From Rhizophagus irregularis (taxonomy: Eukaryota): a DNA stretch of 64,000 nucleotides. A program made the translations under genes and the position numbers. This document shows, piece after piece, positions 607 through 35,938 of this stretch. The stretch is from contig NC_089435.1 in NCBI RefSeq assembly GCF_026210795.1, positions 1,736,001 to 1,800,000 of the forward strand. The letters run 5' to 3'. The notes below the pieces were generated by a model. It was not told the DNA's origin, ran no database searches, and was given only the letters and a program-made list of their open reading frames with translations. Numbering within the stretch: position 1 is the stretch's first letter; each line of letters starts with the position of its first letter.

Positions 607-608
607 TA

Positions 609-17273: not shown

Positions 17274-17325
17274 TTTTATATCATGTAAAGTTTTTTTTAA
17301 TTTAACTTATTTATACTTAATAAAA

Positions 17326-17562: not shown

Positions 17563-17569
17563 GGTTAAA

Positions 17570-17998
17570 TTTTGGTTAGACTTCATTGTCTCAGATTTTT
17601 TCATATTGCAGGGGAAGCTTTACAATATGTCTAGTTGTCTTCCTGCTGTATATTTTTTGGTTAGACCTTGGACGGATTTTTGGTTAGACTTTTGGTTAGA
17701 CCTGTTGTCCCAGATTTTTTCGTATTGCAGAAAAAGCTTTACAATATATCTAGTTACCTTCCTGCTATACATTTTTTGGTTAGACCTGGGTTGGATTTTT
17801 GGTCAGACTTCGCTGTCCCAGATTTTTTCGTATAGGAGGAAAAGCTTTAAAACATATCTAGTTGCCTTCCTGCTATACATTTTTGGTTAGACCTGGGTTA
17901 GATTTTTGGTTAGACTTCGCTGTCCCAGATTTTTTCGTATAGCAGGAAAAGCTTTACAATATGTCTAGTTGCCTTCCTGTTAAAAATTTTTGGTTAGA
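17570..17998. repeat. ~107-bp tandem repeat, about 4 copies, subterminal in element A
   Basis: Repeated TTTTGGTTAGAC..CTGTCCCAGATTTTTTCGTAT..AAGCTTTACAATATGTCTAGTT..TTCCTG. Confidence 0.9.
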
Positions 17999-18953
17999 GC
18001 ATAAATGGCTTAAATCATCGAATGAATCCATTTTAGAGTATCATAAAAATAGTATGCCACAATGGATTGCTGAATCGTGCCATCGGTATTACAGACACTT
18101 CGTGTCCTTCATACCTTTGGCACTTATAAAGGCAATCTGATATAGCATAAAATTATAATACCCTGGAATGGATCCATGCGTGGTAATAATGCCTAGGAAT
18201 ATATGATTTTAATCTTATCTACAACACTTGGGGGTTCTTTTTTAGCTATCAAGTATTAACATATCGGGAATCAAGGTTAGGTGGTCTGGGGATAGAAAAA
18301 CAGGTATAGTGTTATCATATCAGAAAACAAGGCTAGGTGGTCTGGGGGTACACTAAATTATGGTTAGACCTATGTGATAGCCGCTGTCCCAGAACCCCCA
18401 AGTTTGCCCTACTACTGATATTACTTCTAATGTACAGGATTAAAGAAGATTTATACTTCACAAATTTTTATAATTGTAAAGAATAATTGTAAAATAAAGG
18501 TATCATAATAGATTCTGCATTCCAAAGCTTTAACTTCATCTGTCAATATAATATGTAGTTAATGAAATAACAAAGCAAAGCCATATTTACTGGCTAGTAT
18601 TATAGTATGTTATTATTCTAATTAATGGACAAATAAATATTTTTCTATCTTGTTTGGGGAATAAAAAATTCAGAAGGAGCAATAAAATAATAGTATATTT
18701 TTTTATATATACTATGACTATCTTAACTTTAGTTATTGATGTTGAAATATTGTGGATAAGCAAATAAAAAAGGAATATGTTGTTTAAAAGAAGTAATTGT
18801 CCAATTATATTAAAAAGAAGTAAATATTTATTTAGTTTGAAATTTCAATCATAACATCAAAATTTGTTTTATATGATTAGTTAAATAATTACTGGATCGA
18901 GTTGTAAATCTTTTTAAAGTTGAGGTTTGAATTGGGTAAATAGTTGCCTAATT

Positions 18954-19154: not shown

Positions 19155-19160
19155 TAGTAT

Positions 19161-19780
19161 TGTTACAATGAAAAACAATGCGACGAAGTCACGTGATATA
19201 ACCGATGATCAATGGTAATTACCGGGATAATTGGTATTACCAATGTGTGATTGTATGATCAACGTCATATAGCGGGAAGATTAATGTTCGAAATGTTTAT
19301 ATTAAATATATTGCACATATTGCACATATGGTATATATGGCATATATTAAACATTTTAAACATTTTTAGTTTAGTGTTTTTGCTTATAAATAGACGCGAT
19401 GTTTTTCGATGTAATTAGATAGGTATCCAAGTCAATAAGATATTTACCGATATTAAATAAAAACATATTTTATTATTTATAATATCTTTGGTTATCTCAT
19501 TGTTTATTTTATAGTTTGTTATAATTGTGAGTCAATATTGCGTCTGAGTGTATATGCCTGTGTGTGCAATACCGTATTCGAATTTGACTGAAATTTTATT
19601 TTGTTTTATTGTGTAACCTTCGTAAATCGATTGACAGTGATACATTTACTAATATTTACATATAGTTATTTTCACTTTGCGTTCATTAATATTATTTAAC
19701 ATTTATTTTATTCAATTATCCTTCTGCTTACCATACACCCATACGCTTATTTTTATAAGCATACAAGAACTGGCTTAACA
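19161..19780 (+). repeat. 5' LTR of Gypsy 2 (620 bp)
   Basis: Near-identical to 41430-42061. Confidence 0.96.
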
Positions 19781-19835: not shown

Positions 19836-21006
19836 ATGTTCCAAAACCATTTTAATCGCAACGCTATACACGACGCTATACATAGACAATTAGGGCTAAA
19901 TAATATAGCTGCTTATCATCGTGATCTATCGTGTAATAATTGTTACCCATCTGAGATTCCCTTAATCCCCACTTTTCAACACTTTTTGGATTGGATTTCT
20001 TCTAATTATCCGGTTATAGAATATACCCGATACACTCAACAATACTTTAAAGAGGTTGCTTATTCGATTACTAACGCGGATATTGACAACGCCATACATA
20101 ACCTATTGTTCAATATCCAATACACTGATATAGAACCAATAGATTATACCCTTTTGCGTCAGGATCTTATTAACGCCTATAATCTAACTAACGGATTTCA
20201 GCAAGATCCTAACGAAGTCCTTTATCAAGTCAGCGAAACTACTACCTCACCAGAACCTGAAGTTTTAAGTGACACTACGTCAGAAAACTCTGAGAAAGAT
20301 ATTCCCCAATTGCATATTCTCTTACCATCTATATATAATACCCCGAATAACCCAGCTCCAGTAATCCTACCTTTGAATAATATGGCCCAACCTAATCAAC
20401 AGGACTTTCAACAACTGCGAGTTGCCATTGCTGCTTTAACCCAAGCGTTGCCTAATACTAACAATGCTTTGGTTGGAAATACCCAAGCGATTAATAACTC
20501 TCTACGTCGAGAAGGTAAAGTAGCTGATTTACCCCATTTTTACGGTAGTAATCAGGACCCGGTCGCATGGTTAGAAGACTTTACTAGATCTTGTAATGCG
20601 AATGGTATCACAAACGGATGAAAATTAGAAGTTGTACCAGCCTATCTAAAGGGTGCCGCCTCCACATGGTGGAATACTAACCAAGCATTATAACCTGAAT
20701 AGGATTATTGCATGGACCGGTAATAATAATAATACCAATTTTGTTCAGAACTTCCCTACGGCATTTCGAACCCAAACGTTAGTCGAAACCTGGACCACCG
20801 AATTGGAACAAAGGCGTTAGCAACCTGGCGAAGACGTCAACACTTATGCCGCTGCGTTACAAGAATTGTATAGAAGAGTTGAGACGAATGCCTTTGTTTA
20901 TCCTGACGCTATAAAGGTACGAAAGTTTGTCAACGGTTTATTACCGGACTTATATGTAACTGTCAAACCACACAATGACCAGACGTGGAATGGCGCCGTG
21001 GATAGG
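19836..21006 (+). pseudogene. gag: Gypsy 2 gag, 5' part
   Basis: HxxxH..CNNCYP, FYGSNQDPVAWLEDF, QPGEDVNTY, KFVNGL; stops and a frameshift; cut at AVDR by element B. Confidence 0.9.
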
Positions 21007-21488
21007 GTCGTCGGGCTGGTAGTGTGCCTCGCTAGCGCTCACCCCACCTCGGCCAGAGCCTCGCAGTACCTACATCCCCCTCCGTGGGGCAGGGAACCCC
21101 CCATAGATCCTCCACAATTCTCCACATAGATCCTCCACAAAAATATATAACAAAAAAGGATAAAATAAGGGAAAAGAGAGGAAAATAAGAGGGAATCGGA
21201 GAAGTGTGGAGGATGTGGAGGATGTGGAGGACGTTTTAAAAAAATCGGGAGAGGGATCCCCCCAGAAAAAAGTTTTGATTTTACCCCCCAGATCCTCCAC
21301 ATCTTCCACATCTTCCACACGTACAGGATTCCATTCATTTTCCTATTGGAAGCAATGAGATAGCAAACCAGGTAAGTTATTAGCAGGTAAGTCCCTAGAA
21401 GGCCTGTAGAGCCATAGAGATATAACCGGGTAGGAGCGCGGATCTTTGGAAAAAATATATTCGGCAATTGAAGATTAGGTAACTATAA
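21007..21488 (+). repeat. Left TIR of element B
   Basis: Reverse complement of 35452-35933; by eye 1 substitution and 2 compensating homopolymer indels. Confidence 0.97.
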
Positions 21489-21517
21489 ATTAGTACTCGA
21501 TTTGATAGAACGAAAAA

Positions 21518-23863
21518 ATGACCACTCAAGCTCAAGTTATCCCTAAGTTCGGTGAACAAAAGAAAGCCTTCAGTATCGATGAGCTTAAACGGCTTATTGT
21601 CGCTGCAAAGAGTATGAGTGACCTCGATCAAGCCAAGAGGTATCTTTGCAGTTATTTCATTCCCTGTGCAGATCCTCATGGGGTTTTCTGGTGGGACCCG
21701 GATAGTAAAAGTTTGAAACACGTTATTGACAAAAATATTGGTAAACTTATCCGTCCAATCACGAAGGCATTCTACACACAACCTGAACAAGGACCCTCTC
21801 AAAAGACCGAGTTCAACATCTACAAGTGGTTTATGGTCGAGAATACCGATGTATGTAATGCAACCTGTGATCCCCATAAACAGCGAATCTTCAGATCCTT
21901 AACTGGCCAACTCTATCTAAATATCTTCCCGGGATTCCTCCACGTCTTGCGTCCAATATCCACCTTTGAGTCTACAATCCACCTCGCGGTTAAATTTATC
22001 TTTTCTCATATTCGGGATATCTGGTGTTCAGGCGATTGGAATCTTACTGAGTATATCATTAAGTGGTTGGCCGGTGTATCTGCTGGAAGGAAGATGTACT
22101 CGATTCTTTACCTGAAATCTGGACAGGGTTGGGGCAAAGGTATTATAACAGATTTCATTCAGCGCAGCGTCCTAGGCACTCAACTCGTTTATAAGACCAG
22201 CGATCCTCGGACGATTCTTGGAAGTTTTAATGGGCAATTACAGGGTAAGGTTCTTCTTCTTCTCGAGGAAATGCCCACGGAAAAAAGCCAGTGGAATAAT
22301 CTGTATCGCTCTTTGAAGGATAAGGTAACGAGTGACATAATGGAAATCCATGAAAAATACAAGACACCAACACATTATAAAAACTTTATGTCCACTATCG
22401 TCCTAACCAACGAAAATGCTCTCAGAGTGGAGAATGACGATAGGCGCACAGTGTTCTTGGATGTGTCACCATCCCGCAAGGGAGACCTCAACTACTTCAA
22501 AAGACTCAGTGACGCTATGAAATACCCAGGCGCCAGTGAGGCGTTCTATGCTTACTTGAGAGCCATCGCAGACACTTACCCGGACTTCAATGGAAATCCA
22601 CCACCTATGACAACATCCAAACAGGAACATATCATCTCGACTCTTCCACCCCTATTTCAGTTTATAAAGGATACATACCTCGTAATGAAAAATTATATGA
22701 CCGACCTACCTATTCAAGAATTTTATAGGGTATATACTTCATACTGTGAAACTCATGGCATTACACCCTTATCAAAGATAAACGCTTCTAGAATCCTATC
22801 AAATGAGCTAAGTATAAAAAGTAAAAAAATGCGTATAGGTAAAACAACACCACAAGTTTACAGTATATCCAGGGAGGATCTATACAAGAAGTTTCTCGGC
22901 AAAAACTGGATCCACGAAACAGACGAGATAGACATAGAAGGAATTGATATAGAGACTTCTAAGAAACCCGCATCAGACCCCAAAGCCTTGGAAAAGTTCT
23001 TGGCAAATATATATAATCCAGCTAACAATCCACAAGACGTACAAGAGAAACCCACTGAGAAAAAACCCGAACCCGCTGAGGAAAAACCCACTGAGAAAAA
23101 ACCCGAACCCGCTGAGGAAAAACCCGCTGAGAAAAAACCCGAGCCAGATAACTACGACGTTTTAGATGACTTGCTATCTGACTCAGATTTTACAACTGTG
23201 AACCCAGCTCCTGAACAACAACCCGAGTCTCCCGCAGAATCTTCTGCATCTGTCACTAAGCCTGACCCAGAACCGGCTTCTGAAGAGCAATTTATCCCAG
23301 AACCCGACACAGAACCAGAAGTTGACCGGGATCCTGAACCAAAGGAAGGCACTCGAGCGCACTGGGCTTGGCAAGAAAGACACCGATGGGATCGCAAACC
23401 ATGGGTTAAAAATTTAAAGGACCAGGTCTTCAATGATCTCTACAATACAGGTAAGGAATTATGGGCCAAGTACCAAGATGCGTCAGACGAATATGACTGG
23501 GAAATACTCGCGTTTGAAATAGAGGAATGTCCCACAACGCGTATTGAGGACGAGTACCAGTACTACCTTATGGAGGTAGTAGACCGCTTCAAGGACTGGA
23601 TTGAATATAATGGATACTTACCTAAAATACCTAGCCGTAAAGAACTCGCAGATTTAATAAGAATATACAAGGAGAATCGTAATGCCGAGATTATTCCCAC
23701 CCCCTCTGGTTATGAAACTATGAGGGCAGATAAGGGTAAAGCGCGAGAGATCCCCGAGGAACGTCCAAAAACTGATATGGAACGTGAATGGGAGGCCGCC
23801 AATGGAATCATCGATGACTGGGACGAAGAGGATACTGAGGGCGCTATCAACGACATATTGTAA
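21518..23863 (+). CDS. SF3 (D5-like) helicase with winged-helix region and acidic repetitive tail
   Basis: SGQGWGKG (Walker A), LLLEE (Walker B), IVLTN (motif C), DDRR; EEKPTEKKPEPA repeats. Confidence 0.85.
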   Translation: MTTQAQVIPKFGEQKKAFSIDELKRLIVAAKSMSDLDQAKRYLCSYFIPCADPHGVFWWDPDSKSLKHVIDKNIGKLIRPITKAFYTQPEQGPSQKTEFNIYKWFMVENTDVCNATCDPHKQRIFRSLTGQLYLNIFPGFLHVLRPISTFESTIHLAVKFIFSHIRDIWCSGDWNLTEYIIKWLAGVSAGRKMYSILYLKSGQGWGKGIITDFIQRSVLGTQLVYKTSDPRTILGSFNGQLQGKVLLLLEEMPTEKSQWNNLYRSLKDKVTSDIMEIHEKYKTPTHYKNFMSTIVLTNENALRVENDDRRTVFLDVSPSRKGDLNYFKRLSDAMKYPGASEAFYAYLRAIADTYPDFNGNPPPMTTSKQEHIISTLPPLFQFIKDTYLVMKNYMTDLPIQEFYRVYTSYCETHGITPLSKINASRILSNELSIKSKKMRIGKTTPQVYSISREDLYKKFLGKNWIHETDEIDIEGIDIETSKKPASDPKALEKFLANIYNPANNPQDVQEKPTEKKPEPAEEKPTEKKPEPAEEKPAEKKPEPDNYDVLDDLLSDSDFTTVNPAPEQQPESPAESSASVTKPDPEPASEEQFIPEPDTEPEVDRDPEPKEGTRAHWAWQERHRWDRKPWVKNLKDQVFNDLYNTGKELWAKYQDASDEYDWEILAFEIEECPTTRIEDEYQYYLMEVVDRFKDWIEYNGYLPKIPSRKELADLIRIYKENRNAEIIPTPSGYETMRADKGKAREIPEERPKTDMEREWEAANGIIDDWDEEDTEGAINDIL

Positions 23864-23948
23864 GCGCTATTTGAGATTATTTCTTTTTTTTTTCGTATAT
23901 ATATAGAAAGATATTATTTATAGTTGAAGACAAATCATATACATAAAA

Positions 23949-25802
23949 ATGCAATACTCAAGAATTGCCCGCACTTTACCAACACGACCTGACATCAAGG
24001 AACTTCAGTATTCCGGTGCTCGCTTTTCCAGAGGAGCTATCGCCAGACTCGGTCAGACTCTCCAGACGCGATTTCCAGATAGAAAGTTCCAGATCCTACT
24101 TCCCTATGAAAACTGGAAACCCGGTGGATGGACATCAGGAAACCAACCAGCCAGCCTCTTTTCACTATTAGACCATTATGATGAAGCACAACTACCGGAT
24201 GACGCAGACCCTGATTATTTTGAACGATTCATAATTTATGCAAGAGATAGTCCACCGGCCGCAGGAGGATGCAATGGGGAGCTAAATGATTGCCTGTATG
24301 AATGCCTAAAAAATATTTACGGCACATTCTCTAAAATGCCAAAGTCAATCGAAAAGCCCGAGTATATCAAAAAGGCATTAGGTCTCAATCGCGATGCTCC
24401 CATCCCAGTTTCATGCATGGACAAGGTTGAACAACTCGCAGGAAGTCTCGCAATTAATATTGTGGGGGACATTACCCGAATCTCTAAGAGTAAGTCCGAT
24501 AGACGTGCGACTCTCATCCTATCAGAAGGCCATTACTCCCTCACGTTAAATCCTGGAAGACTCCACCCCAGTAAAATAGATAAAAAGCGTAATTTACCCA
24601 TTGTATACCATGAAGATGGGACCAATAATGTAGTCACAATATACAACGGCAAAACAGTTAAGTCTTGCACAATTGCGCAGTTTCAAAAAACTAAGAATTC
24701 CAAAAGTTCTTTCATCCCCGTCGAGAAAAACCGTAAGACTGGAGTATATGAAACTCTTGAAGAAGCATATCAGAGAATCCACGAGGAGCGGAATTCCTTT
24801 CTACAGGAGACAAAGAAGTTCGGTTTAGGAATCGACTTATCATACCATAACTGGTCTTACAAAAGAACGGCTCTCTGGTTATTCGAACGATTAAGTGTAG
24901 GAATTCCAGCCAATGATCCTCTTGACCCGATAGAAGCGGAGTGGTTAAGTGATGCAATGATGGGAGGATTAATCTGGGCAGATAACGAGTGGAAAGGCTA
25001 TGGAAGACAGTATGACGCAACAAGTTTATACCCGAGTATCCAACAATCAAACGTGAACTTTCCAATCAGACGGGGTAAATTCCAGACACTTAATGACTTT
25101 GTCGACCACAGGGGTTATGCCTTGTATGGATTATTCCGTGCCAAAATAAGTGGGAATAATATTCTCTTCCGACAGAATAAAAGGGGAATCTATACATTCA
25201 TCGACTTACAACGAGCAAAAAAACTTGGTCTCAATATACAGTTAATACAGGATGGGAAGCCAAATGCATTGATATATGATAGAGAAGCGAGAATCCCTGG
25301 AACTGTAATATTCGGTGAGTATGTACACTTCCTCTTCAAAATTAAAAACCAGGGTGGCATAGCTGGCCGCGTGGCAAAGCGAGTCCTCAACACATTATGG
25401 GGAGCATTATGCCAGAGGAAGCGTAATTACAAGACACTCACCACAGATCAAACAGACCCATTTACATTTCCAGAGGGCCATACACTCGACTCTATCATAC
25501 CAGTAGGATCTGACCAGTGGCGATTCCAGTTTACAAACCCGGGTAATCCCTTCAAAGGTGAGTATCCCAGGATCGCCCCATTCTTATTAGCACGTGGTCG
25601 CAAAATCACATCTGAGGCAATTCAACCATACAAGGATAAAGTACGACGTATCCATACAGACGGATTTATTTTAGAAGAACAGCCAGATAGCCCCGCGCTT
25701 TTCACTTGTTCAGAGAATGCAGATACGACTCTAAAGACTTTCAAGTTTGAAACCGCGGGATACTGCCATGTGAAAAATGCGAACAAGGTTATCTGGACAT
25801 GA
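23949..25802 (+). CDS. polB: Compact protein-primed-type family B DNA polymerase with putative OTU-like N-terminal domain
   Basis: GG, YDATSLYPS, KRVLNTLWG, IHTDG; NDCLYECL...GHY upstream. Confidence 0.85.
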   Translation: MQYSRIARTLPTRPDIKELQYSGARFSRGAIARLGQTLQTRFPDRKFQILLPYENWKPGGWTSGNQPASLFSLLDHYDEAQLPDDADPDYFERFIIYARDSPPAAGGCNGELNDCLYECLKNIYGTFSKMPKSIEKPEYIKKALGLNRDAPIPVSCMDKVEQLAGSLAINIVGDITRISKSKSDRRATLILSEGHYSLTLNPGRLHPSKIDKKRNLPIVYHEDGTNNVVTIYNGKTVKSCTIAQFQKTKNSKSSFIPVEKNRKTGVYETLEEAYQRIHEERNSFLQETKKFGLGIDLSYHNWSYKRTALWLFERLSVGIPANDPLDPIEAEWLSDAMMGGLIWADNEWKGYGRQYDATSLYPSIQQSNVNFPIRRGKFQTLNDFVDHRGYALYGLFRAKISGNNILFRQNKRGIYTFIDLQRAKKLGLNIQLIQDGKPNALIYDREARIPGTVIFGEYVHFLFKIKNQGGIAGRVAKRVLNTLWGALCQRKRNYKTLTTDQTDPFTFPEGHTLDSIIPVGSDQWRFQFTNPGNPFKGEYPRIAPFLLARGRKITSEAIQPYKDKVRRIHTDGFILEEQPDSPALFTCSENADTTLKTFKFETAGYCHVKNANKVIWT

Positions 25803-25865
25803 TTGCTAGGGACCGGTATGTATATTTTTTACTGACATATCGTGATGGCATAATTGAATAAACCT

Positions 25866-26390
25866 ATGGGATATGTAATCTTACGAGATACCCAAATGCA
25901 AAACACCGACGGATTAGGTAGACAAGACGACGAAAGTTTCCACGTGTGGGCTAAGCGCATTCAGAATGCTGTGCAATATTATGAGACTTGTAGTAGAATA
26001 GGTTTTCATAGGCGGCTACCTTATCCAAGGTCTCGTCAAGCTGTATATGCTTATATTGTGCACATTAGGAGAATAGTATCACGACTACCAAATAGGTGGT
26101 ACTGTACCTACTGTAAATCTTTTATTGATCGCGGATGGGGAGCTGACGCTTTCATGGATCAAGCGGTGCGACTACATTTATATAGTTGCCCAAAGCATTT
26201 TAATTTCGACTATTATACTCATCATGCTGAAATGATCCAGAATGCCTTTAGGAGATATATAGAAAGAAGGAACAATAAAGCGGCTAGGATAATCCAGAAA
26301 GTCGCTATCCCCTGGTTATATAGACCAGGCTCTCCATTGATGCAAAAGGCCGAGCGACGCTTCTACTGTCTTGCAGTATCCCAAGTGTAA
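25866..26390 (+). CDS. Hypothetical protein with Zn-finger-like and IQ-like motifs (start uncertain)
   Basis: CTYC..HLYSC; IQNAFRRY and ARIIQK..W. Confidence 0.65.
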   Translation: MGYVILRDTQMQNTDGLGRQDDESFHVWAKRIQNAVQYYETCSRIGFHRRLPYPRSRQAVYAYIVHIRRIVSRLPNRWYCTYCKSFIDRGWGADAFMDQAVRLHLYSCPKHFNFDYYTHHAEMIQNAFRRYIERRNNKAARIIQKVAIPWLYRPGSPLMQKAERRFYCLAVSQV

Positions 26391-26472
26391 ACCCCGAGGT
26401 TCATATTTATTTTTTCTCATTCGAATGAACAGGTAACTGAAGATTTATATTTTTTACAAAGTACAAAGAATC

Positions 26473-26943
26473 ATGTCAACATATACCGAATTCGCAAGCA
26501 TTGTTAACAGCACTGACAGCACTAGTGAGGAGGTTATTTACGAGGCATCGCGCATTCAGCCTAATGTTGTCTCTGACGAAACTGTCCCCAAGATTATCCG
26601 CGCATTAAAAGATACTATAGTAATCGCATTAGTATCTGGGTTTAGCAAAACCAGTTACCTCGTCCAGGACCACGTGAAGTATATCAAGCGAATCCAAACG
26701 GCAAATTCTCCTGTATCATATGTGAAGTTCGTGGCCAGAAAACTCTTCCCAGATAATGCGGCATATACTGCTAAAATAGCAAAAATCCGCGAATCATACA
26801 AGAATAAACAAGCTCTCCTAGATAAGCTTGAGGCCCTCTTCGAATTGTATTATAATGCGACTAAGGACTCATCAACCGGTCCCCCAAAGCGAGCTATTAC
26901 TAAAAACGAGGCTGAGAAAACCTTAACAGAACTTCTTGCATAA
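26473..26943 (+). CDS. Uncharacterised helical protein, homologous to element A ORF 16896-17273
   Basis: 156-aa ORF with upstream AACTGAAGAT motif; similar to the element A protein. Confidence 0.8.
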   Translation: MSTYTEFASIVNSTDSTSEEVIYEASRIQPNVVSDETVPKIIRALKDTIVIALVSGFSKTSYLVQDHVKYIKRIQTANSPVSYVKFVARKLFPDNAAYTAKIAKIRESYKNKQALLDKLEALFELYYNATKDSSTGPPKRAITKNEAEKTLTELLA

Positions 26944-27052
26944 GCGGCTCCTGTGGTCCTACGATTCTGTACGAATTTAGTCTATATTTTTTATCCATGT
27001 GTAATAGGCATACAGTAATTGAAGATAGCTATAGTATAAGTAACATAACATC

Positions 27053-27457
27053 ATGTTGGACCGATTACCAGTAGAAATAGTCGAACGCATTGTCGCAAAG
27101 ATCCCGGATACTGACCTTATTGCAGCGAGTAAGGTAGATAGAGTGTGGTGGCAGGAAGTTCGTCGAGAGGCATATAAGAGGTGGAAAAATTATGCCACTA
27201 CGATCGGGGATGTGTACTGTGAAATCCGAGCTCTCGGAAAGCATTATATAAAGAGGGAAATTGACTGGATAACGTTTGAAGATGTAAACGACTTCTATAA
27301 AAGATGGATAGACCGCCTCACCGAGGATCAGCTTTATATTATGGAGAAAATGCTTAGGAATGGGATGGTCGTGGACCCCCAAGAGAGGGAAACCATAGAG
27401 CATGCATTAAGTGAACAAAGATGGGGAGGCGATCCTTGGAGACTGGGAGTGGTATGA
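27053..27457 (+). CDS. F-box protein
   Basis: N-terminal LDRLPVEIVERIV...L...SKVDRVW matches the F-box consensus. Confidence 0.8.
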   Translation: MLDRLPVEIVERIVAKIPDTDLIAASKVDRVWWQEVRREAYKRWKNYATTIGDVYCEIRALGKHYIKREIDWITFEDVNDFYKRWIDRLTEDQLYIMEKMLRNGMVVDPQERETIEHALSEQRWGGDPWRLGVV

Positions 27458-27796
27458 ATGGACTCAACAGGAGTAAGCATTTTGTACTTGACTTTCGTAG
27501 GAATTACCCTGCAGAGTCATATTTTTTAGATCCGGCCGGCATTACCGCGTAATCCCGAATTACCGAAAAAGGAAATTTATGTTACACAAGATTCCAAACG
27601 CATTTTTACCAAAATCGATTTTTTGTGGAACGGGTATCGCCCAAAAAGGAAATGATCTACGTACCACATGAAGTCACGTGACACTCTACACATTTGTTCA
27701 GGGTATCACGTGACATGAACTCCGTTCACATTTTCTGTAATATAATCCATAGTTTTTTCATGAATGCTTTTTAGGCCAATAATCCAATAACTTATT

Positions 27797-27946
27797 CATC
27801 AGGTATCCTCGTGTTTTGCGACAAGGACTGATGACCATGTAACCTCATCATCAGGCATCCTCACATTTTTTGACAAGGACTGATGACCATGTAACCTCAT
27901 CATCAGGCATCCTCGCATTTTTTGACAAGGACTGATGACGATGTCA
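27797..27946. repeat. 52-bp tandem repeat x~3 with internal dyad symmetry
   Basis: Units start at 27797, 27849 and 27901; CATCAG..TCCT pairs with AGGA.CTGATG. Confidence 0.92.
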
Positions 27947-28005
27947 CTTGGTTATTGTAAATTGAAGATAACAATTAGGTATGTAGACACGTACAGAAAA
28001 AAGAC

Positions 28006-28590
28006 ATGTCATACCCTTATATAACTAATCCTATAACCGGACGTCCAATCCGTGTTGGTGGAGATACCTTTAATCGAATAGTTATGGAATCCCATGATTA
28101 TATCGATGGAAGGCTTGTCCGTAGACAAACCGTACCGCCTCCACCCCAGGAACAACCTGTATATTTAAATACAGATACAGGACGCTATATTCAACACGGT
28201 ACTAGAACGTATCATAGACTGGTTGAGAGTGACTACGAGGTAGTTGAGGACTACTACCTTGTTCATTCTGAAGAGGAGGAGCTTATAGAGGAAATCATCA
28301 ATGAAACACGCTATAATGAGGAAAATCTTGATGGCCAGCGGTTAACTTTCAATAATGTACAACAAATCAGAGCCGCTATTCAAGCTGACCAAGATGAATA
28401 TGATGATTTTATCTTACAGCAGAATACGACTAACGGGACACCTTCCTCCGGTCCTTCCGGTCGTCCACGAACTTTGGAGGACCATGCCCCGAGACTTGCA
28501 GAGCTTAATATTGAGTTGTGTAGGGAATGTCTCATGCCTGTAAGCCCAAGTGACTTAACGGACAAGTTGTGCAAGGACTGCGCTTCCTAA
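28006..28590 (+). CDS. Hypothetical protein with duplicated N(P)xTGRxI motif and C-terminal Zn ribbon
   Basis: NPITGRPIRVGG and NTDTGRYIQHG; CREC...CKDC. Confidence 0.75.
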   Translation: MSYPYITNPITGRPIRVGGDTFNRIVMESHDYIDGRLVRRQTVPPPPQEQPVYLNTDTGRYIQHGTRTYHRLVESDYEVVEDYYLVHSEEEELIEEIINETRYNEENLDGQRLTFNNVQQIRAAIQADQDEYDDFILQQNTTNGTPSSGPSGRPRTLEDHAPRLAELNIELCRECLMPVSPSDLTDKLCKDCAS

Positions 28591-28750
28591 TGGTCAGTCC
28601 TCCGGTCCTCTGGTCTTCCGGTCTTTCCAACGGTTGATCCCTTAATGCCAGTTATTTTTTTTTATACAAATGACAGGTATTTAAAGATAACAATATATAA
28701 AAAAGATTGTGAAGGATACTAAGTGAGCGAATAATCAAAGAAAGATAGCC

Positions 28751-29302
28751 ATGTCAACATCAATCGTAATAAACCAGTGTCAGAACTGTGGAGTATTCTC
28801 TGCAAAAGCGGCATATAGAGGATTATCCAGCGTGTTGTATAGACAGATTATAAAGAAGATTGGTGACGAGAGTGAACCTTTACAAGCCTTGGGACTTGCC
28901 AGGGATAAGTTGGTCCAGATTATCCGTCGGGCAAGTAATGCGGATTTTACACAATTATTCACACAAAGACTAGATATGAAAATTATGGACGGAGATTCAT
29001 ACGAGGATACTAGGAAGTGGCTTCTTGAACAGCTTATAGCCATTGGATGTGACAGTGGGGAAATTGCCTTATATCAGTTCTTACGGAATACATACCCGGA
29101 TGGTATTGACGAACCCTTTACTACATTCTATGAGAACTATGTAAATCATGTAAGAAATCCGATGACTAAGAACTTTGCTTCTCGAGCCTTAGGAGCTATT
29201 GGATTAAAAGCTAGGATGCTACGGATTGACTTCGAAGGACGTAAAAAAAGCGCCATGATTCTTAGGGCTTCTGCGGAAGAACTTCGCGAGATGGGTTGCT
29301 AA
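28751..29302 (+). CDS. Protein resembling the helicase C-terminal winged-helix region
   Basis: LYQFLRNTY..FYENY..PMTKNFASRAL versus helicase LFQFIKDTY..FYRVY..PLSKINASRIL. Confidence 0.75.
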   Translation: MSTSIVINQCQNCGVFSAKAAYRGLSSVLYRQIIKKIGDESEPLQALGLARDKLVQIIRRASNADFTQLFTQRLDMKIMDGDSYEDTRKWLLEQLIAIGCDSGEIALYQFLRNTYPDGIDEPFTTFYENYVNHVRNPMTKNFASRALGAIGLKARMLRIDFEGRKKSAMILRASAEELREMGC

Positions 29303-29315
29303 AGCAACCAGATTC

Positions 29316-30506
29316 TTACAAAATACTATTGATCCCTACTCGTAATGCTCGACGGTCCATATGACCCTTAGAAAAGATCTGTAAAAGGACCCCGATGCCT
29401 TCTATTAATTTTTTATTATCCAAAGGGTGACTAGACTTCAGGACTTCATATCGGGAGAATAACTCCTTTACGGTCTCAGATTTTGGAATTTCAGTCTTTG
29501 CGGTCCTATCCCGTACTTTTGCTAAGAATTTTTGGAAGTCCGATCCCAGGGTTTTACCAGATAGTCCGTAGGCTTCCCGAAAGACGTACTTAATCCAGGT
29601 ATCTGCGTTCTTAGCTATAATACCAGATACGAGGAGGTGTTTTCTCTCTTTAGGCGATGGATATTCCCGAGCAAACTCAATTAGCTGGGAGGACTTTTTT
29701 GCTTCAGCTACAGCTTTCTGGCCATAAGGACTAAACTTTGATCGAACTGGGTTCAAACTCGGATCGAACGGGGATTGAACTGAGTTCGAACTAGGATCGA
29801 ACTGAGATTGATCAGTGATCGAACTGAGACTAGTATCCCATCTAACCCGAATGGATAACGGATCGCTCTTGGATCTTCTAAGATCAAATACTATAAATTC
29901 GCGTTGCAGAGTAAGGTCATCGATTACTGGAGCTAGTGACTCCGATTCTTCTGTATACTGGCGGATGATCCTCTTAGTATCAGTCAAACTTCCGTGACCT
30001 CCATGTAGGGAAATATAATTCACATTTTCACGAATAGCCTTGGGAATGGTAAAGAATCTTTGGGCCACATAAATACATGAAATATTTTTGTGTTGTCCGT
30101 GTGTAAAAAATCCAGTGATGAGATCCTGGGTTTTTTTAGGCGCATCCATCAAATCCTCGAAGATTACCACAGTAGCCTGGGTGGAGTTGAAGTCCTTAAC
30201 ATTTGGAATCTCACTATGGGATACTGCGGTAAACGGAATTTCTTCTTCTTTGAAAAAATCACGTACGATTGCCCACTTCGGTTCATCGAGGTATCTGCCA
30301 ACTAGAATTACCGCATCACATAATATGTACCTTTCGCCATCCTCCTTTGCCTTCTTGTCTCCCATTAACAAATTAATGATCATAGTTGTCTTACCCGAGT
30401 CAGAACTTCCTGCTACGGCAAGACAGAAAGGCCATGATGGGGCAAACTCATTACCCTGTCTCGAGTCGGTCGTGTACTCGTCCAAATTGTATACATAAAG
30501 ATCCAT
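29316..30506 (-). CDS. A32-like (FtsK-HerA) DNA-packaging ATPase
   Basis: VAGSSDSGKTT, VVIFEDL, THGQHKNISCIYVAQ..IPKAIREN (canonical GRHxxIS...Q...P..IR.N). Confidence 0.88.
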   Translation of the reverse strand: MDLYVYNLDEYTTDSRQGNEFAPSWPFCLAVAGSSDSGKTTMIINLLMGDKKAKEDGERYILCDAVILVGRYLDEPKWAIVRDFFKEEEIPFTAVSHSEIPNVKDFNSTQATVVIFEDLMDAPKKTQDLITGFFTHGQHKNISCIYVAQRFFTIPKAIRENVNYISLHGGHGSLTDTKRIIRQYTEESESLAPVIDDLTLQREFIVFDLRRSKSDPLSIRVRWDTSLSSITDQSQFDPSSNSVQSPFDPSLNPVRSKFSPYGQKAVAEAKKSSQLIEFAREYPSPKERKHLLVSGIIAKNADTWIKYVFREAYGLSGKTLGSDFQKFLAKVRDRTAKTEIPKSETVKELFSRYEVLKSSHPLDNKKLIEGIGVLLQIFSKGHMDRRALRVGINSIL

Positions 30507-30534
30507 TTGAATTTTATTCTAATTTAGTTTAAAT

Positions 30535-31248
30535 ATGATGTCGACATCGACACCAATTGCAATTTATACTCCTTCAGAGCCTACTGGACCGCCTCCTAGG
30601 GATTTGCGTGATATGAATAATATACCATTAGTTGCGGTAATTAAGGATCTAACAGATTTTTTAACTGTCAGTGATCGCATGGTTGTTAATCGAGATGTAC
30701 AAAATGCAAACCATCGTCTTAAACATGCTCTTAATTTATTAATTCATCGCTGTAGAGAAACATACGAAGAACGTGATATATTAAAAGCGGAACGCGATCG
30801 ATCTCGAAAAGAACGCGATGAATTACAAGACGAACTCGAGGTTCAAACAGGTTTGTTAGGTCTTACACAAGATGAGCTAAATAACGTACAAGATACTATT
30901 ACTAGTTTAGAAGCTAATTTGGCTGAATTGGAACGGGAGTTTGGTGGTATGCGGACGACTAATCGTCGTCTTCAGCAGCAATATAATCTTATGAGAGGAG
31001 AACGTAATAGAGCTATAGGTGAACGTAATAGAGCTATAGGCGAGCGTGATGTGGCACGAAATCGGCTTGTATATGCCAATAATCGGGTTCTTTTTGGAAT
31101 TCGGACATTGGGACGTCTTAGGAATCGACTTTTCCAACAAATAGCCGCTCTGCGTATCCAAGTACAATGGTTTCGGATTAGACAATTGAACCCTCCTCCA
31201 CATCCTCTCAACCATCCACAAAATACGATATGGCTGCCGTTGGTATAG
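30535..31248 (+). CDS. Coiled-coil protein, probable N-terminal part of element B Gag
   Basis: Heptad-rich with GERNRAI repeats; overlaps the gag start; the equivalent region is fused to Gag in element A. Confidence 0.75.
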   Translation: MMSTSTPIAIYTPSEPTGPPPRDLRDMNNIPLVAVIKDLTDFLTVSDRMVVNRDVQNANHRLKHALNLLIHRCRETYEERDILKAERDRSRKERDELQDELEVQTGLLGLTQDELNNVQDTITSLEANLAELEREFGGMRTTNRRLQQQYNLMRGERNRAIGERNRAIGERDVARNRLVYANNRVLFGIRTLGRLRNRLFQQIAALRIQVQWFRIRQLNPPPHPLNHPQNTIWLPLV

Positions 31249-32726
31249 CTGCCCCCATATTTCATGGTCGGGAAGATGAAGATCTTAATCTTTTTATTGA
31301 TAACTTTTTAGGGTATATTAATACCGTTGGTATTGATCCATTGGACGATGCCGGTGCGCCTCCTGGTCGGGTGCGAGCGATGGGGGTTCTTCGTAGCTGT
31401 ATGAGAGATGAAGCGGCGAGGTGGTTTGATGCAGAACTTACTGGAAAAAATTGGGAACTCTCGAATATTCGGTTAGTGGCTGCTGCAAATGGTGGAGCCG
31501 GTGCTACTCGCCGAGCGTTCAGAGCTTTAGCTGTTCCTGAGGTTGCTAATGGATTACATGTTGGTACTTACTTACCCGGGTCTGATGCTGATGTATATTC
31601 AAGGGTTGCAGGTAATGCGGCGGTAACCGTTGGAGATGCATTTTTCCCATCACGCGCTGATATCGTTAGAACGAATTTTAAAGTTGAAGAGCAGTGGAGG
31701 CGTGCGGGCGGACGTCCTACTCATCAACCCGTTAATGGGTTGGGAAATCATGGAGGTCCATTTAATGCTGCTGTCCAGAATCAACCAATAGTCTTACAGG
31801 GGATTCTCCTGGATCAAGCATTTATGCATATGCGTACAAATTTTCCAACCGTCGTGGAAGAAAGACTTCAGATACGATTTAGTAATCTTTACCAGGAACA
31901 AGGTGAACCTGTTCGATCTTACTATAAGCGAGTTGAGAGGGCTGGGGATATTGTAGGATATAATCGAATTATGGTTACTGACCAGTTCTATAGAGGACTT
32001 TTGCCGGAAAACGTTATTGAAGCTTCCAGAATCGGGGCGGCACCTCTTAATACATTAATCGATAGATTGAGTGATCTTGAGCGACGAAAGGGCGAAATGT
32101 TCTATGGATTACAAAGGCGTCAGGGTATTGAAAAGGCTAAAAAAGAGGAATTGGCTGGCTATACTCATCCCGTGACTCCACACGAAGGTGCTGTAATACA
32201 AAGGTCGACAGACGTTATTACTCAAGAACGATTACAAGAATTGCTCAAGGCACAAGCCGAGGAACTTACCAAGAATTTCCAGGCACAATTTAAACAATTA
32301 CAAGCATCTAAGCCAGTTCGTAAACCACCGGTCTATAGACAACAGATTAAACCTGTTCGACCAAAACCACAGAGACGTGTCATTCAGGATCCTCAGGATC
32401 CTGATTGGGATGATGGTTATGTAGATCATAATTTTGGTGATGACCCTGGTGACCCTGATGCTCCTGAGTGGACTAGTGAGGATGATCAACATGTTATTGA
32501 TCTTATTATGGGATATGAGACGTCTAAAAGATTTCCAAAGAGACTTCAGAAGGCTAAAGATAGACGCGATGATCTGGAATTAGCCCGAGCAATGAGAAAC
32601 CTCGATCTTAATGATGATGCTATGGATATTGATACTAATACCACGAGTTTTGATGACTTGAAAATTGTTCCCGATGAGGAAGGTGGTTTTCGGATTTGTG
32701 TGGTTCGAAGTACAAAAAAAAAGTAA
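31230..32726 (+). CDS. Retrotransposon-type Gag (capsid-like) protein of element B
   Basis: PIFHGREDEDLNLFIDNF, AARWF, major-homology-region-like LYQEQGEPVRSYYKRV, QFYRGL. Confidence 0.85.
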   Translation: MAAVGIAAPIFHGREDEDLNLFIDNFLGYINTVGIDPLDDAGAPPGRVRAMGVLRSCMRDEAARWFDAELTGKNWELSNIRLVAAANGGAGATRRAFRALAVPEVANGLHVGTYLPGSDADVYSRVAGNAAVTVGDAFFPSRADIVRTNFKVEEQWRRAGGRPTHQPVNGLGNHGGPFNAAVQNQPIVLQGILLDQAFMHMRTNFPTVVEERLQIRFSNLYQEQGEPVRSYYKRVERAGDIVGYNRIMVTDQFYRGLLPENVIEASRIGAAPLNTLIDRLSDLERRKGEMFYGLQRRQGIEKAKKEELAGYTHPVTPHEGAVIQRSTDVITQERLQELLKAQAEELTKNFQAQFKQLQASKPVRKPPVYRQQIKPVRPKPQRRVIQDPQDPDWDDGYVDHNFGDDPGDPDAPEWTSEDDQHVIDLIMGYETSKRFPKRLQKAKDRRDDLELARAMRNLDLNDDAMDIDTNTTSFDDLKIVPDEEGGFRICVVRSTKKK

Positions 32727-33445
32727 ACTCGGATAAGGGTGTAAGTATCTCGAAACTTCTTAAATCTGTTCCAAAAAAATCAGTTAAAATGACTCCTATT
32801 AAGATTCCTGTGAAGGTTACTAGTAGTAAGCCCACACTTATAAAAGCCGTCACCAAAAATGATTCATTAAGTTTATTAAGGTCTGCAGATTTTAGGAAAT
32901 TACTCCGCGAGATTCTTCGGGAAGAATTAAAGTCTGCTCGTAAAAGTACGGAGATTCCGGAAGACCTAGTTGAGGAAAAACAAGAAGAGGATATCAGGGA
33001 AGATGACCCGATGGATATTGACATAGCTCGTTTGGAGAATACTAAAGATCTTTTAGCGCTGGATGGGGAGGTCAATGGGATAGCAATTCAGTGTTTAGCA
33101 GACACTTGTGCTAACGCGTCTTTTATTCAGAGGGAAGCCGCTGAAGAATTAGGGTTGGATATCGACAAGAGTATTACACATAACATATCCGGCGCTCCGG
33201 GTTCTGGTAGGACATTCGGCATGGTAAAAGGTGTGTCAATCAAACTAACCCCTGATTGTGTAATCACTGAGAATCTCGCGGTTTTAAGCGATTACAAGCA
33301 TAGGGAGATTGGATTGAGCCGGACGTGTCTGAAACGTTACAATTATGATGTCCATGAATCACGTGAACATATCGCCCTTACTTGTAATGAGAAGAATGTT
33401 TTTATCCCGATAGTTTCTGATGTGAATCGAGGAGACAAAAAATAG
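32696..33445 (+). CDS. Retropepsin-like aspartic protease, probably made by -1 frameshift from gag
   Basis: CLADTCANASFI..AEELGL, ISGAPG flap, IGLSR; in the -1 frame behind A AAA AAG TAA (32717-32726). Confidence 0.82.
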   Translation: MCGSKYKKKVNSDKGVSISKLLKSVPKKSVKMTPIKIPVKVTSSKPTLIKAVTKNDSLSLLRSADFRKLLREILREELKSARKSTEIPEDLVEEKQEEDIREDDPMDIDIARLENTKDLLALDGEVNGIAIQCLADTCANASFIQREAAEELGLDIDKSITHNISGAPGSGRTFGMVKGVSIKLTPDCVITENLAVLSDYKHREIGLSRTCLKRYNYDVHESREHIALTCNEKNVFIPIVSDVNRGDKK

Positions 33446-33459
33446 GGAATATTTATTTT

Positions 33460-34551
33460 TTATTCCCAAAACTTGCGGATTAAGGCAGGGACATCCTCCT
33501 CCAACCGGTCAGTGGGTTCCCAAGTGGCTTCGGTATCTGGGTATCGTTCCCACTTGACTAGATACTGGTCTTGACCCTTCCTGATGCGATGCCGGAGTAT
33601 CCGCTCAGGTACAAATCTTTCGGGTTGCCCTCTTATCATGGAGTCAGGTGGGGGATGTTCATTTTCTGGAACAATCTGCAACTCTTTTCGGGTGTACGCA
33701 CATCTGGATACACCTAGACGCCCGTGTGGTCCATCAAGAAGATACGTAGGAGGCTGTTCGGGTGAGAGGATCATTTTTTTGATGACACGGATATTGGGAT
33801 TCCATCTTATGTCACCTGTACGAAATTTTCCATGGAGTTTATTCCCGAGTACTGAAATAGGTTCGTCTAACTTGACTCGGACATGTGTTCCTTCAGAGAG
33901 AAGTTCCGTCTTTTTTGACACTTTGGGTGACCCTGTCGGAATGTCTGGGGGATTTCTCTGCCAGATTTCATCTATTTTATTAACTACATCACGGAAATCT
34001 TCTGACCATTCCACGGATGTCACCCCGGTCTTCAACTCCTGTGCCACCATTCGTTTTAGGAGAGGCTCCTGGATCGCTTGGATAGCTCGTTCAGCGTATG
34101 ATTGCTGTTTGTGTCTTCCTGGCTCTCCAAACCTCATCATCACCCCTAGGCTGTTCAGGAAAAAATCACGTACCTGATCATTGGTGAATTCTGATCCGGA
34201 GTCTGTCTCCATTCGATGTGTTGGTGGTTTAATGCGATTTCTTCTGTAGATTTTAACAAATCCATTGAGAACCCTATTTGCAGTCTTATCCTTTAGGAGT
34301 TCTGCATCAACTCGTTTACCCGCGACTTCCACCACTATGAGAAAATAGTGGAATCCTTTGGGGTCGACTGGCATCTCTGCGAGATCTGCCTGATGCGTCG
34401 CATTTGGTTTCCATACAACTACTCGTGGACGCTCTGATGACTTTTCCTTTAGGGGCTTTTTGTATAGGTTGTAGTGCTCCTCACCTTTTAGAATTCGTGC
34501 TGGTACTCTGGAGAGATTGTAGTATTTGTAGTAATTCTCTAAATGCGACAT
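33460..34551 (-). CDS. Polinton-type c-integrase with C-terminal chromodomain
   Basis: HQADLAEM, TDSGSEF, AERA; chromodomain PERILRHR..YLVKWERY...TWEP. Confidence 0.93.
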   Translation of the reverse strand: MSHLENYYKYYNLSRVPARILKGEEHYNLYKKPLKEKSSERPRVVVWKPNATHQADLAEMPVDPKGFHYFLIVVEVAGKRVDAELLKDKTANRVLNGFVKIYRRNRIKPPTHRMETDSGSEFTNDQVRDFFLNSLGVMMRFGEPGRHKQQSYAERAIQAIQEPLLKRMVAQELKTGVTSVEWSEDFRDVVNKIDEIWQRNPPDIPTGSPKVSKKTELLSEGTHVRVKLDEPISVLGNKLHGKFRTGDIRWNPNIRVIKKMILSPEQPPTYLLDGPHGRLGVSRCAYTRKELQIVPENEHPPPDSMIRGQPERFVPERILRHRIRKGQDQYLVKWERYPDTEATWEPTDRLEEDVPALIRKFWE

Positions 34552-34595
34552 ATTACGACAAATTAAAGGAAAGATTTCGGACTTCAAATCTTAAA

Positions 34596-34916
34596 ATGAC
34601 ACGATTTTACTGCCTAAAGTGTAAGAAGGAAACCGAGACTGCTAGTGAAATACAAGATATGACCACAAATGGCCGCTATCGTTTACATGGTGATTGCACA
34701 GTTTGTGGTATGCATAAGAATACTTTTACTGGGATAGACTGGGTTATCAAAAAGAAAACCAAGGAGAAGAAAAAAGAAACTGCGGCTAAAAGACATCAGA
34801 CGGCGTACAATCGGCAATGCAAAAAACTCGGGCAGAAAATCTTAGAGGCTGATGACGCGTGTAAACAGTGTATTGATAAATGCCTTAAGGAGGCAAAAAA
34901 GAGGAAGACGGATTAG
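34596..34916 (+). CDS. Small Zn-ribbon basic protein (DUF5679-like)
   Basis: YCLKCKKET...TTNGR....GDCTVCGMHKNTF; AAAATG start. Confidence 0.75.
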   Translation: MTRFYCLKCKKETETASEIQDMTTNGRYRLHGDCTVCGMHKNTFTGIDWVIKKKTKEKKKETAAKRHQTAYNRQCKKLGQKILEADDACKQCIDKCLKEAKKRKTD

Positions 34917-34925
34917 TACCGCCTT

Positions 34926-35441
34926 CTAAAAGTATTCCTCATCATCTGAGTCATCGAGAGATACCTCTCCATCATCTGATTCATCATCCGAGTCGTCAGG
35001 AGTGCGACCTTCCTTAAGCAATTGGATGTTGTACGTTATTTGAGTCCATTTCTCCCAGTCGGACTCTTGCGTTATAAAGCCGCATCTGAGGAGTGCTCTT
35101 TCTATTACTACCATCCCTGCAAACCTGGTGTATTTTTTCTGATCGGCTTCATTGAAATTGTCAATAGCTTCTTTGTAGTAGTCTACTGCTTGTTTGTATA
35201 CCTCTTCGGCTTCTTTATGCCGCTTCCACAACTCGGCTTTACAACAGTTATACCAGAGTCTGTTAATCTTGAGATGTTTTCCGAATTCTTTAACCGGAAG
35301 GTTTCTGACCATCTCTGCTACTATGTCCGGGTCATTGAGGGGTGATGCCTGAATTTGGATCCATTTACGGATTCCATAGATGTCTACAAGATCAAGCCCG
35401 AGGTCTTCGGCAAGAGAAGTGGCGGCGTGTAAGTTTATCAT
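34926..35441 (-). CDS. Putative divergent F-box protein with acidic tail
   Basis: LNDPDIVAEMVRNLPVKE....KINRLW; starts just inside the right TIR boundary. Confidence 0.65.
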   Translation of the reverse strand: MINLHAATSLAEDLGLDLVDIYGIRKWIQIQASPLNDPDIVAEMVRNLPVKEFGKHLKINRLWYNCCKAELWKRHKEAEEVYKQAVDYYKEAIDNFNEADQKKYTRFAGMVVIERALLRCGFITQESDWEKWTQITYNIQLLKEGRTPDDSDDESDDGEVSLDDSDDEEYF

Positions 35442-35451
35442 TGTATGTTAC

Positions 35452-35933
35452 TTATAGTTACCTAATCTTCAATTGCCGAATATATTTTTTCCAAAGATCC
35501 GCGCTCCTACCCGGTTATATCTCTATGGCTCTACAGGCCTTCTAGGGACTTACCTGCTAATAACTTACCTGGTTTGCTATCTCATTGCTTCCAATAGGAA
35601 AATGAATGGAATCCTGTACGTGTGGAAGATGTGGAAGATGTGGAGGATCTGGGGGGTAAAATCAAAACTTTTTTCTGGGGGGATCCCTCTCCCGATTTTT
35701 TTAAAACGTCCTCCACATCCTCCACATCCTCCACACTTCTCCGATTCCCTCTTATTTTCCTCTCTTTTCCCTTATTTTATCCTTTTTTGTTATATATTTT
35801 TGTGGAGGATCTATGTGGAGAATTGTGGAGGATCTATGGGGGTTCCCTGCCCCACGGAGGGGGGATGTAGGTACTGCGAGGCCCTGGCCGAGGTGGGGTG
35901 AGCGCTAGCGAGGCACACTACCAGCCCGACGAC
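35452..35933 (-). repeat. Right TIR of element B
   Basis: Reverse complement of 21007-21488; ends ...GCCCGACGAC, followed by ATAGG. Confidence 0.97.
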
Positions 35934-35938
35934 ATAGG

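Follow-up and report, generated by a model that had tools for sequence, protein, structure and literature searches.

We analyzed a 64,000-nucleotide stretch of the Rhizophagus irregularis genome (contig NC_089435.1, positions 1,736,001 to 1,800,000; hereafter the window), in which positions 21007-35933 are occupied by a mobile element of about 15 kb. We found that this element carries the replication, integration and packaging genes of a Polinton (Maverick) together with a Gag protein and a retropepsin of retroviral type. By its transposon features it can be classified as a Polinton; neither the jelly-roll capsid that defines polintoviruses nor the reverse transcriptase (RT) and long terminal repeats (LTRs) that define retroelements were recognized among its genes and repeats. 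The reading we favor is that, in the family represented by this element, Gag and protease (Gag-Pro) have probably replaced the jelly-roll capsid, and that the element packs its own protein-primed linear DNA in a Gag shell by means of an A32-type ATPase. The features that bear on this reading are the following.

21002-21006: left target-site duplication (TSD), ATAGG, 5 bp, located in the gag gene of a Ty3/gypsy element
21007-21488, plus strand: left terminal inverted repeat (TIR), 482 bp, starting with the trinucleotide repeat GTC GTC
21518-23863, plus strand: superfamily 3 (SF3, D5-like) helicase, 781 amino acids (aa), with a repetitive acidic tail (DUF5906, E=6e-17; Pox_D5 weak)
23949-25802, plus strand: compact protein-primed family B DNA polymerase (pPolB), 617 aa (DNA_pol_B_2, E=7e-6, just under the cut-off)
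29316-30506, minus strand: A32-like packaging ATPase, 396 aa, with an extra conserved C-terminal domain (Pox_A32, E=1e-8)
30535-31248, plus strand: coiled-coil protein, 237 aa, head-to-head with the ATPase, its 3' end overlapping the Gag start codon
31230-32726, plus strand: Gag, 498 aa (capsid fold; family profile)
32714-32723, plus strand: nine-A run, A AAA AAA / A AAA AAG in register just before the Gag stop, a predicted -1 frameshift or slippage site
32678-33445, plus strand: retropepsin frame, -1 relative to Gag, first ATG at 32789 (Asp_protease_2, E=4e-8)
33460-34551, minus strand: integrase, 363 aa, with a C-terminal chromodomain, convergent with Pro (rve, E=7e-8; Chromo, E=4e-17)
35452-35933, minus strand: right TIR
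35934-35938: right TSD, ATAGG

The TIRs and the TSD show the element to be mobile. Both had been claimed in a preliminary description of this DNA, and both were borne out: the two TIRs are 98% identical over 482 nt without gaps and 99.4% identical when gaps are allowed, and ATAGG stands on either side of the element. The termini read GT...AC, whereas animal Polintons have AG...CT ends and a 6-bp TSD. No long direct repeats were found within the element, its ends being inverted repeats rather than LTRs. The insertion lies in a Ty3/gypsy element (19160-42060) that contains several stops and whose LTRs, at approximately 19160-19780 and 41430-42060, are 96.5% identical; excising the inserted element together with one TSD copy repairs the frame of the Ty3/gypsy gag across the junction. 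The empty site was spanned by contigs in two of four public sequencing runs (X1 and X5). By the coarse measure of contig depth, gag-pro was about as abundant as the rest of the element in all four runs, and both were far above the flanks. The G+C content of the element (approximately 0.39-0.45) exceeds that of most of the window.

Pfam searches confirmed the SF3 helicase, pPolB, A32-like ATPase, chromodomain integrase and retropepsin named in the preliminary description. The pPolB motifs YDxTSLYPS, KxxLNTLWG and HTDG were kept in an alignment of 26 sequences (55-89% identity), no exonuclease motifs were seen by eye, and an N-terminal Cys/His pair (NDCL..GHYS) is presumably OTU-like. The integrase has the catalytic triad D56-D117-E154. 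The ATPase family showed 62 invariant columns across 46 sequences, and a relative with 76% identity was present in R. clarus. Neither the ATPase profile nor the pPolB profile matched any PDB sequence at E<=1. The absence of RT, RNase H and LTRs reported earlier also held: RT and RNase H had no Pfam match in the element, and the pol of the Ty3 elements of the window had no tblastn match in the element or in the 59 metagenome loci described below. These features bear on the possibility that Gag packages element RNA, which is then reverse-transcribed in trans by a co-resident LTR retrotransposon. A retroviral type of Gag-Pro and the RT-encoding Ty3/gypsy elements in the same window would fit such a route. 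However, the element has TIRs and not LTRs, its genes lie on both strands, pPolB and helicase are conserved, and a CCHC knuckle was absent from the Gag of the element and from all 11 full-length metagenome Gags, so that we consider this route barely credible.

The structural model indicates that the Gag open reading frame (ORF) has the two-domain fold of a retroviral capsid protein (CA), as had been expected for 31230-32726, and the motifs listed earlier (FHGREDED, AARWF, QEQGEPVRSY and FYRGL) are present in its translation. CA (approximately residues 1-290) is followed by coiled-coil, basic and acidic segments, and its N-terminal domain contains an Ala/Gly-rich insertion of about 120 aa (residues ~72-192) that is variable among relatives. 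When the model built from 24 diverse sequences (pLDDT 77, pTM 0.67) was compared with 48,161 chains, ranks 1-37 were all capsid domains of retroviruses, retrotransposons, Arc, PNMA or foamy viruses. The best match was the C-terminal domain (CTD) of PEG10 (Z 10.5, rmsd 2.5 over 84 residues). The capsids of RSV, Copia, MLV, dArc1 and PNMA2 could be aligned at full length, over 144-171 residues (rmsd 6.5-9.5). A first model, based on 17 mostly similar sequences, resolved only residues 219-306, i.e., the C-terminal domain, and its top 27 matches among the same chains were also all capsid domains. Foldseek pointed in the same direction with E>=0.004, and the Atlas leads for Gag (0.86-0.88) agreed with CA. 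The Gag ORF itself had no Pfam match; Retrotrans_gag was matched by 9 of 24 aligned family members, and the family Gag profile matched PEG10 CA (E=0.0017). All 120 Gag homologues listed were named Rhizophagus irregularis and were up to 100% identical.

The arrangement of Gag and protease is also of retroviral type. Gag ends on the nine-A run (32714-32722), Pro follows in the -1 frame, and the run is predicted to be a -1 frameshift or slippage site into Pro. Within the family, 11 of 13 junctions had Pro in the -1 frame behind an in-register A7, and in the remaining two the gag frame was broken. As a control, we examined the ORFs of the element and the family loci that are 120 aa or longer (231 in all): an in-register A AAA AAA terminated 14 of them, and all 14 were Gag. 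Upstream, in 25 of 31 junctions, a long coiled-coil ORF overlapped the Gag AUG and stopped 13-16 nt beyond it. Public annotation contains spliced gene models that join coiled coil, Gag and Pro (predictions only). Thus, the element shares with Ty3/gypsy elements (Metaviridae) and other Ortervirales the two-domain CA, the retropepsin and a -1-frame gene behind a slippery run, but differs from them in lacking RT, RNase H, LTRs and zinc knuckle and in having genes for DNA-to-DNA replication and a packaging ATPase.

One soil-metagenome scan, seeded with an ATPase alignment, identified 59 loci, comprising 57 family members and two remote relatives; best-segment ATPase identity of the family members was mostly 50-92%. 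Gag was located upstream of the ATPase in all 23 family loci that had at least 1400 nt there. Pro was found in 12 of the 13 loci whose sequence extends 3000 nt or more beyond the ATPase on that side, and the 13th ended within the N-terminal part of Pro. In four loci with 1000-1400 nt and no Gag match, the coiled-coil ORF filled the sequence up to the contig end. The recurrent order was integrase, Pro, Gag, coiled coil and ATPase, except for one locus (L033) with no integrase beside Pro. Three contigs (L014, L050 and L016) had Gag, ATPase and a pPolB together, and gag and ATPase also bear neighboring accession numbers in R. irregularis assemblies (CAB5188301/302, GBC12195/197 and GET52522/524; adjacency of accessions). 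The TIR sequence of the element showed no conservation among the metagenome loci. The ratio of nonsynonymous to synonymous rates (dN/dS) pointed to purifying selection: it was 0.21 and 0.23 for gag in the two moderately diverged pairs, which are the cleanest, it reached 1 in none of 194 usable gag pairs, and its median for Pro was 0.28. Both checks proposed in the preliminary description, on sibling copies and on dN/dS, therefore came out on the side of retention, and Gag-Pro can be regarded as a fixed trait of the family, kept at the same place and under purifying selection.

These data also bear on the view that gag-pro is a passenger, the remnant of an LTR retrotransposon that inserted in a capsid-less Polinton. 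The window is a nest of LTR elements, the layout of gag-pro, with its -1 slip, is that of a retroelement, and CA does not co-diverge with the core genes, all of which would suit a passenger. On the other hand, all 23 informative loci agree in position and orientation although their ATPases are only ~50-90% identical, gag-pro is under purifying selection, there is no RT and there are no long direct repeats, and the integrase is of viral type and on the opposite strand. Moreover, the family Gag profile found no Ty3 Gag in the window and matched the Ty3 proteases weakly. A passenger origin is thus largely refuted and must be considered very improbable.

The earlier statement that no jelly roll occurs among the ORFs held on ORF size. 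No ORF of the size of a double jelly-roll (DJR) major capsid protein (MCP) was found: assigned ORFs are nowhere more than 548 nt apart, and no unassigned ORF reaches 240 aa, a penton-sized jelly roll or a spliced product being possible. Twelve long family loci listed ORF by ORF likewise contained no unassigned ORF of MCP size. Sequence searches of the element revealed no penton (Pfam and tblastn) and no adenain (Pfam), the small ORFs not having been folded, and a Chou-Fasman screen of the small ORFs gave no discrimination.

A relative that does have a jelly-roll capsid was found among viral contigs. Scans with Gag, a single pPolB, the ATPase alignment or the Gag alignment gave no relative there; the pPolB alignment alone retrieved three IMG/VR contigs, L060-L062. 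Like the element, they have an SF3 helicase, an A32-like ATPase, a compact pPolB with HTDG at its end (26-32% identity) and an integrase with a chromodomain (32-38% identical to that of the element). In L060 (1-13963), pPolB and integrase are 32% and 38% identical to those of the element, respectively, and are accompanied by an SF3 helicase fragment and the A32 ATPase; L061 and L062 share the replication module with it, and no capsid gene was recognized in the available stretches of these two. L060 differs from the element in that its 412-aa ORF (5615-6853) matches NCLDV-type major capsid clusters (TM 0.75-0.76), a penton-like ORF is present at 4782-5534, and neither Gag nor Pro had a match; a PDB sequence search with this MCP gave one unrelated match (E=1.3). 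Viruses therefore combine with a DJR capsid the same replication-integration module that the fungal family combines with Gag-Pro. The DJR capsid of L060, found with the same type of polymerase and integrase, supports capsid replacement, and at the level of genes the earlier proposal that Gag-Pro replaced the morphogenetic module gains support from the CA fold, the fixed linkage and this DJR relative. In the integrase tree, the six family rows formed a clade (99/100) and deeper nodes were not resolved; because these nodes are open, the direction of the swap rests on parsimony. Another contig, L057 (5365-8776), encodes a remote relative of the ATPase (26%), followed by a penton-like 272-aa ORF and a capsid-size, unassigned 466-aa ORF; L058 overlaps L057 and adds a long pPolB and an integrase.

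The true capsid could nevertheless be a jelly roll, either encoded in spliced or very divergent form within the small ORFs or provided in trans by another element or virus acting as helper, with Gag as an accessory or core protein. Pfam missed the true MCP of L060, so that, with the small ORFs unfolded, it is the size of the ORFs that speaks against a jelly roll. Furthermore, in the accessible part of Buck et al. (PMC11071296), a few hexon-bearing adintoviruses are noted to encode accessory proteins with remote similarity to CA, and a giant endogenous viral region has been described in R. irregularis (PMC10640383, partial text). Against a hidden capsid stand the 548-nt limit on gaps and the 240-aa limit on unassigned ORFs, the variation of small-ORF content among relatives, the presence of a dedicated retropepsin with no adenain found by Pfam, and the lack of tblastn matches to the MCP-like and penton-like proteins of L057, L060 and L062 in the element or the family loci. 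We consider a hidden or borrowed jelly roll improbable.

Comparison with described systems placed the element close to Polintons/Mavericks and adintoviruses (PMC8502044), with which it shares the ~15-kb TIR-bounded integration, TSD, pPolB, chromodomain rve integrase and A32 ATPase. It differs from Polintons/Mavericks in the lack of a DJR MCP-sized ORF and of penton and adenain matches in sequence searches, and in the presence of Gag CA and retropepsin, a compact pPolB with an SF3 helicase, the 5-bp TSD and the GT...AC ends. According to the available portion of PMC4028283, the ATPase and adenain are generally present in Polintons that have an MCP, and they are lost jointly. In the same host, a Polinton of Glomus intraradices with no detected MCP was reported (Kapitonov and Jurka 2006; Pritham 2007; cited in the accessible text of PMC7805220 and PMC11952901), and Bellas and Sommaruga (2021) stated that no MCP had yet been found for it (PMC7805220, partial text). 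Mavericks have expanded in Glomerales, with recent activity in R. irregularis (available parts of PMC8647823 and PMC11952901), PMC11296320 (partial text) draws attention to D5-like helicases in this fungus, and a 2026 preprint (10.64898/2026.06.19.733378) placed Rhizophagus A32 ATPases with Maverick-Polintons, the word gag being absent from its accessible text. The capsid-less Polinton may belong to the same Repbase family as the element; the accounts of that Polinton mention neither Gag nor retropepsin in their available portions (PMC7805220, PMC11952901, PMC8647823).

A precedent was found in the Fig. 5 legend of Starrett et al. (2021; PMC8502044), where 'Matrix/Capsid/NC/Pro' genes are labeled in a MELD-related element and are not discussed in the accessible text. 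Like our element, it combines PolB with genes annotated as similar to retroviral Gag and retropepsin, and an S3H label, for an SF3 helicase, occurs in the same figure. It lists NC, which is absent from the element and present in a second element of the window (see below), a comparison made from the legend only; it may be either of these two. The preliminary description had not recognized the element as a described family: beyond this legend no family-level description was found in a search that left most subscription papers outside, and the labels in the partially available paper show that genes of this kind had been noticed before.

If the reading we favor is correct, the life cycle would be as follows. 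The compact pPolB would replicate a linear, TIR-ended copy while the SF3 helicase opened the strands in front of the polymerase. Gag would be made in excess from its own AUG, and slippage on the A-run would give a minority of Gag-Pro. CA would form a lattice of retroviral type, the protease would trim the acidic Gag tail, and the ATPase would load the ~15-kb DNA into the shell, which fits the absence of an RNA-binding zinc knuckle. The particle would convey DNA and integrase among the nuclei of the coenocytic mycelium, and the chromodomain integrase would insert the DNA into repeat-rich chromatin with a 5-bp TSD. Double-stranded DNA (dsDNA) in a Gag-derived shell is known from caulimoviruses. 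By a rough estimate, 15 kb of dsDNA takes up ~16,000 nm3, about half of the interior of a Ty3-like shell with an inner radius of ~20 nm, and CA lattices can be larger; this estimate supports the need for a motor.

Besides the MCP missed by Pfam, several observations weigh against this reading. A32-type ATPases are established as partners of DJR capsids (PMC4028283, partial text), and the reading requires that such an enzyme can dock on a CA lattice. Particle formation, DNA packaging, expression and frameshifting are deduced from the genes. The 57 family loci include near-duplicates and represent about 18 Gag types by eye. The median dN/dS of gag over usable pairs is 0.50, with deep pairs near saturation, and is above that of the ATPase (0.15) and integrase (0.11). 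CA distances were uncorrelated with those of the ATPase (rho 0.18, p 0.053, n=20), integrase (0.09) and Pro (0.04), whereas Pro distances tracked integrase (rho 0.67) and ATPase (0.45), and Gag and ATPase trees agreed in tip clades and differed in deep branching. Thus, CA may be exchanged within the family, or may be fast-evolving or saturated, and is not strictly co-inherited. An exchange of capsid domains is suggested by two CA types, ~44% identical, that alternate between near-identical flanking genes in R. irregularis (31230-32100 versus L056 and P0109-P0120). No strong RNA structure was found 3' of the slippery site (-4 to -9 kcal/mol), so that transcriptional slippage or low efficiency is possible, and frameshifting and slippage are not distinguished. 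The protease motif is non-canonical, with DTC in the element and DSA or DSG in relatives instead of a constant D[TS]G, and protease activity is therefore not assured. The ATPase of the element reads GQH, without the conserved Arg, where 155 of 157 ATPase sequences compared read GRH. Given these protease and ATPase motifs, this particular copy may be defective.

Some of these points would fit equally a Gag-Pro that is under selection without forming a closed, DNA-filled virion, and that serves an intracellular transposon as a scaffold, replication compartment or nuclear-delivery coat. Such a role would be in line with the ~120-aa insertion in the CA N-terminal domain, the non-canonical protease motif, and the domesticated capsids PEG10, Arc and PNMA among the top structural matches. 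A precedent for an A32 ATPase with a CA shell was not found. A complex prediction of ATPase and Gag CA (score 0.00) spoke for neither reading. However, both CA domains, the protease, the Gag:Gag-Pro switch and a conserved ATPase are kept head-to-head throughout the family, which amounts to a full set for particle assembly, maturation and filling. We therefore regard a non-virion role as unlikely, though deserving of serious consideration.

A second, distant Gag-Pro Polinton-like element is represented in the window by its decayed right half (10190-18400), cut by an LTR retrotransposon. Its long-type pPolB is followed by a minus-strand block of coiled coil, Gag, CCHC and retropepsin and then by an integrase (15854-16906); an A AAA AAC run lies near 13802, with Pro in the -1 frame. 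Its coiled coil, protease and integrase matched the family profiles (E=6e-9, 7e-15 and 6e-16, respectively) far better than did the Ty3 proteins of the window. The family Gag profile did not match its Gag, and its CA assignment accordingly rests on layout and motif pattern. Tandem repeats of 107 nt (17546-17986) may belong to its terminus. The long pPolB type was also paired with the family ATPase in two metagenome loci, L016 and L024; in the latter (2154-5681), the ATPase adjoins a 1176-aa pPolB with an endonuclease VII domain, indicating that the family has at least two polymerase types. Taking both elements together, we lean, if only slightly, toward a broader view: a dsDNA virus lineage of glomeromycotan fungi that does not use RT, has a CA-lattice virion, a frameshift-made retropepsin and A32-driven filling, arose by a whole-module capsid swap between jelly-roll DNA viruses and reverse-transcribing viruses, is represented in this one genome by at least two sub-lineages, and can move genes between nuclei or strains.

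The remaining ORFs of the element are smaller, and several recur in relatives.

25866-26390, plus strand: ORF, 174 aa, C-terminal part common to L033 and L034
26473-26943, plus strand: ORF, 156 aa, kept in L014, L035 and the second element (16896-17306)
27053-27457, plus strand: F-box-like protein, 134 aa (F-box, E=0.008; relatives E ~1e-5)
28006-28590, plus strand: 2-cysteine-adaptor-like protein, 194 aa, conserved (2C_adapt, E=9e-4)
28751-29302, plus strand: conserved ORF, 183 aa
34437-34916, plus strand: DUF5679 protein, 159 aa (E=1e-17)
34926-35441, minus strand: ORF, 171 aa, no match in the 59 loci

Three 52-bp tandem repeats (27788-27947) lie inside the largest intergenic gap of the element. 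F-box ORFs were recurrent across the family. In L028 (2508-2882), a small F-box ORF has a C-terminal half resembling the CTD of Gag CA (tblastn E=7e-4), a possible F-box-CA fusion that could direct capsid proteins to degradation.

The window as a whole is a nest of at least four mobile elements. Positions 1-10194 hold a Ty3/gypsy LTR retrotransposon with LTRs 98% identical, whose pol frame (5627-7747) continues past RNase H with a P-loop domain resembling thymidylate kinase (Thymidylate_kin, E=4e-4). At 61966-62621, a cluster of ~105-nt direct repeats and a 47-nt G+C-rich inverted repeat (62329-62547) may represent the end of a small DNA transposon.

In virus classification, a jelly-roll capsid with an A32 ATPase and a Gag capsid with RT are treated as inseparable hallmarks of two realms. 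A family that has the DNA replication genes and motor of one realm and the shell and protease of the other would break this coupling of capsid and replication, and it raises the question of whether a DNA-packaging ATPase can fill a CA lattice. A Gag shell would also explain why Polintons of R. irregularis have long lacked a recognizable capsid gene, a gap stated in the accessible text of PMC7805220. The finding concerns a recently expanded repeat class of a model mycorrhizal fungus (PMC8647823 and PMC11952901, partial texts). Particles, if they exist, would constitute an integrating vehicle for DNA that is native to these fungi, and if they are shown, the element would be a new type of virus.

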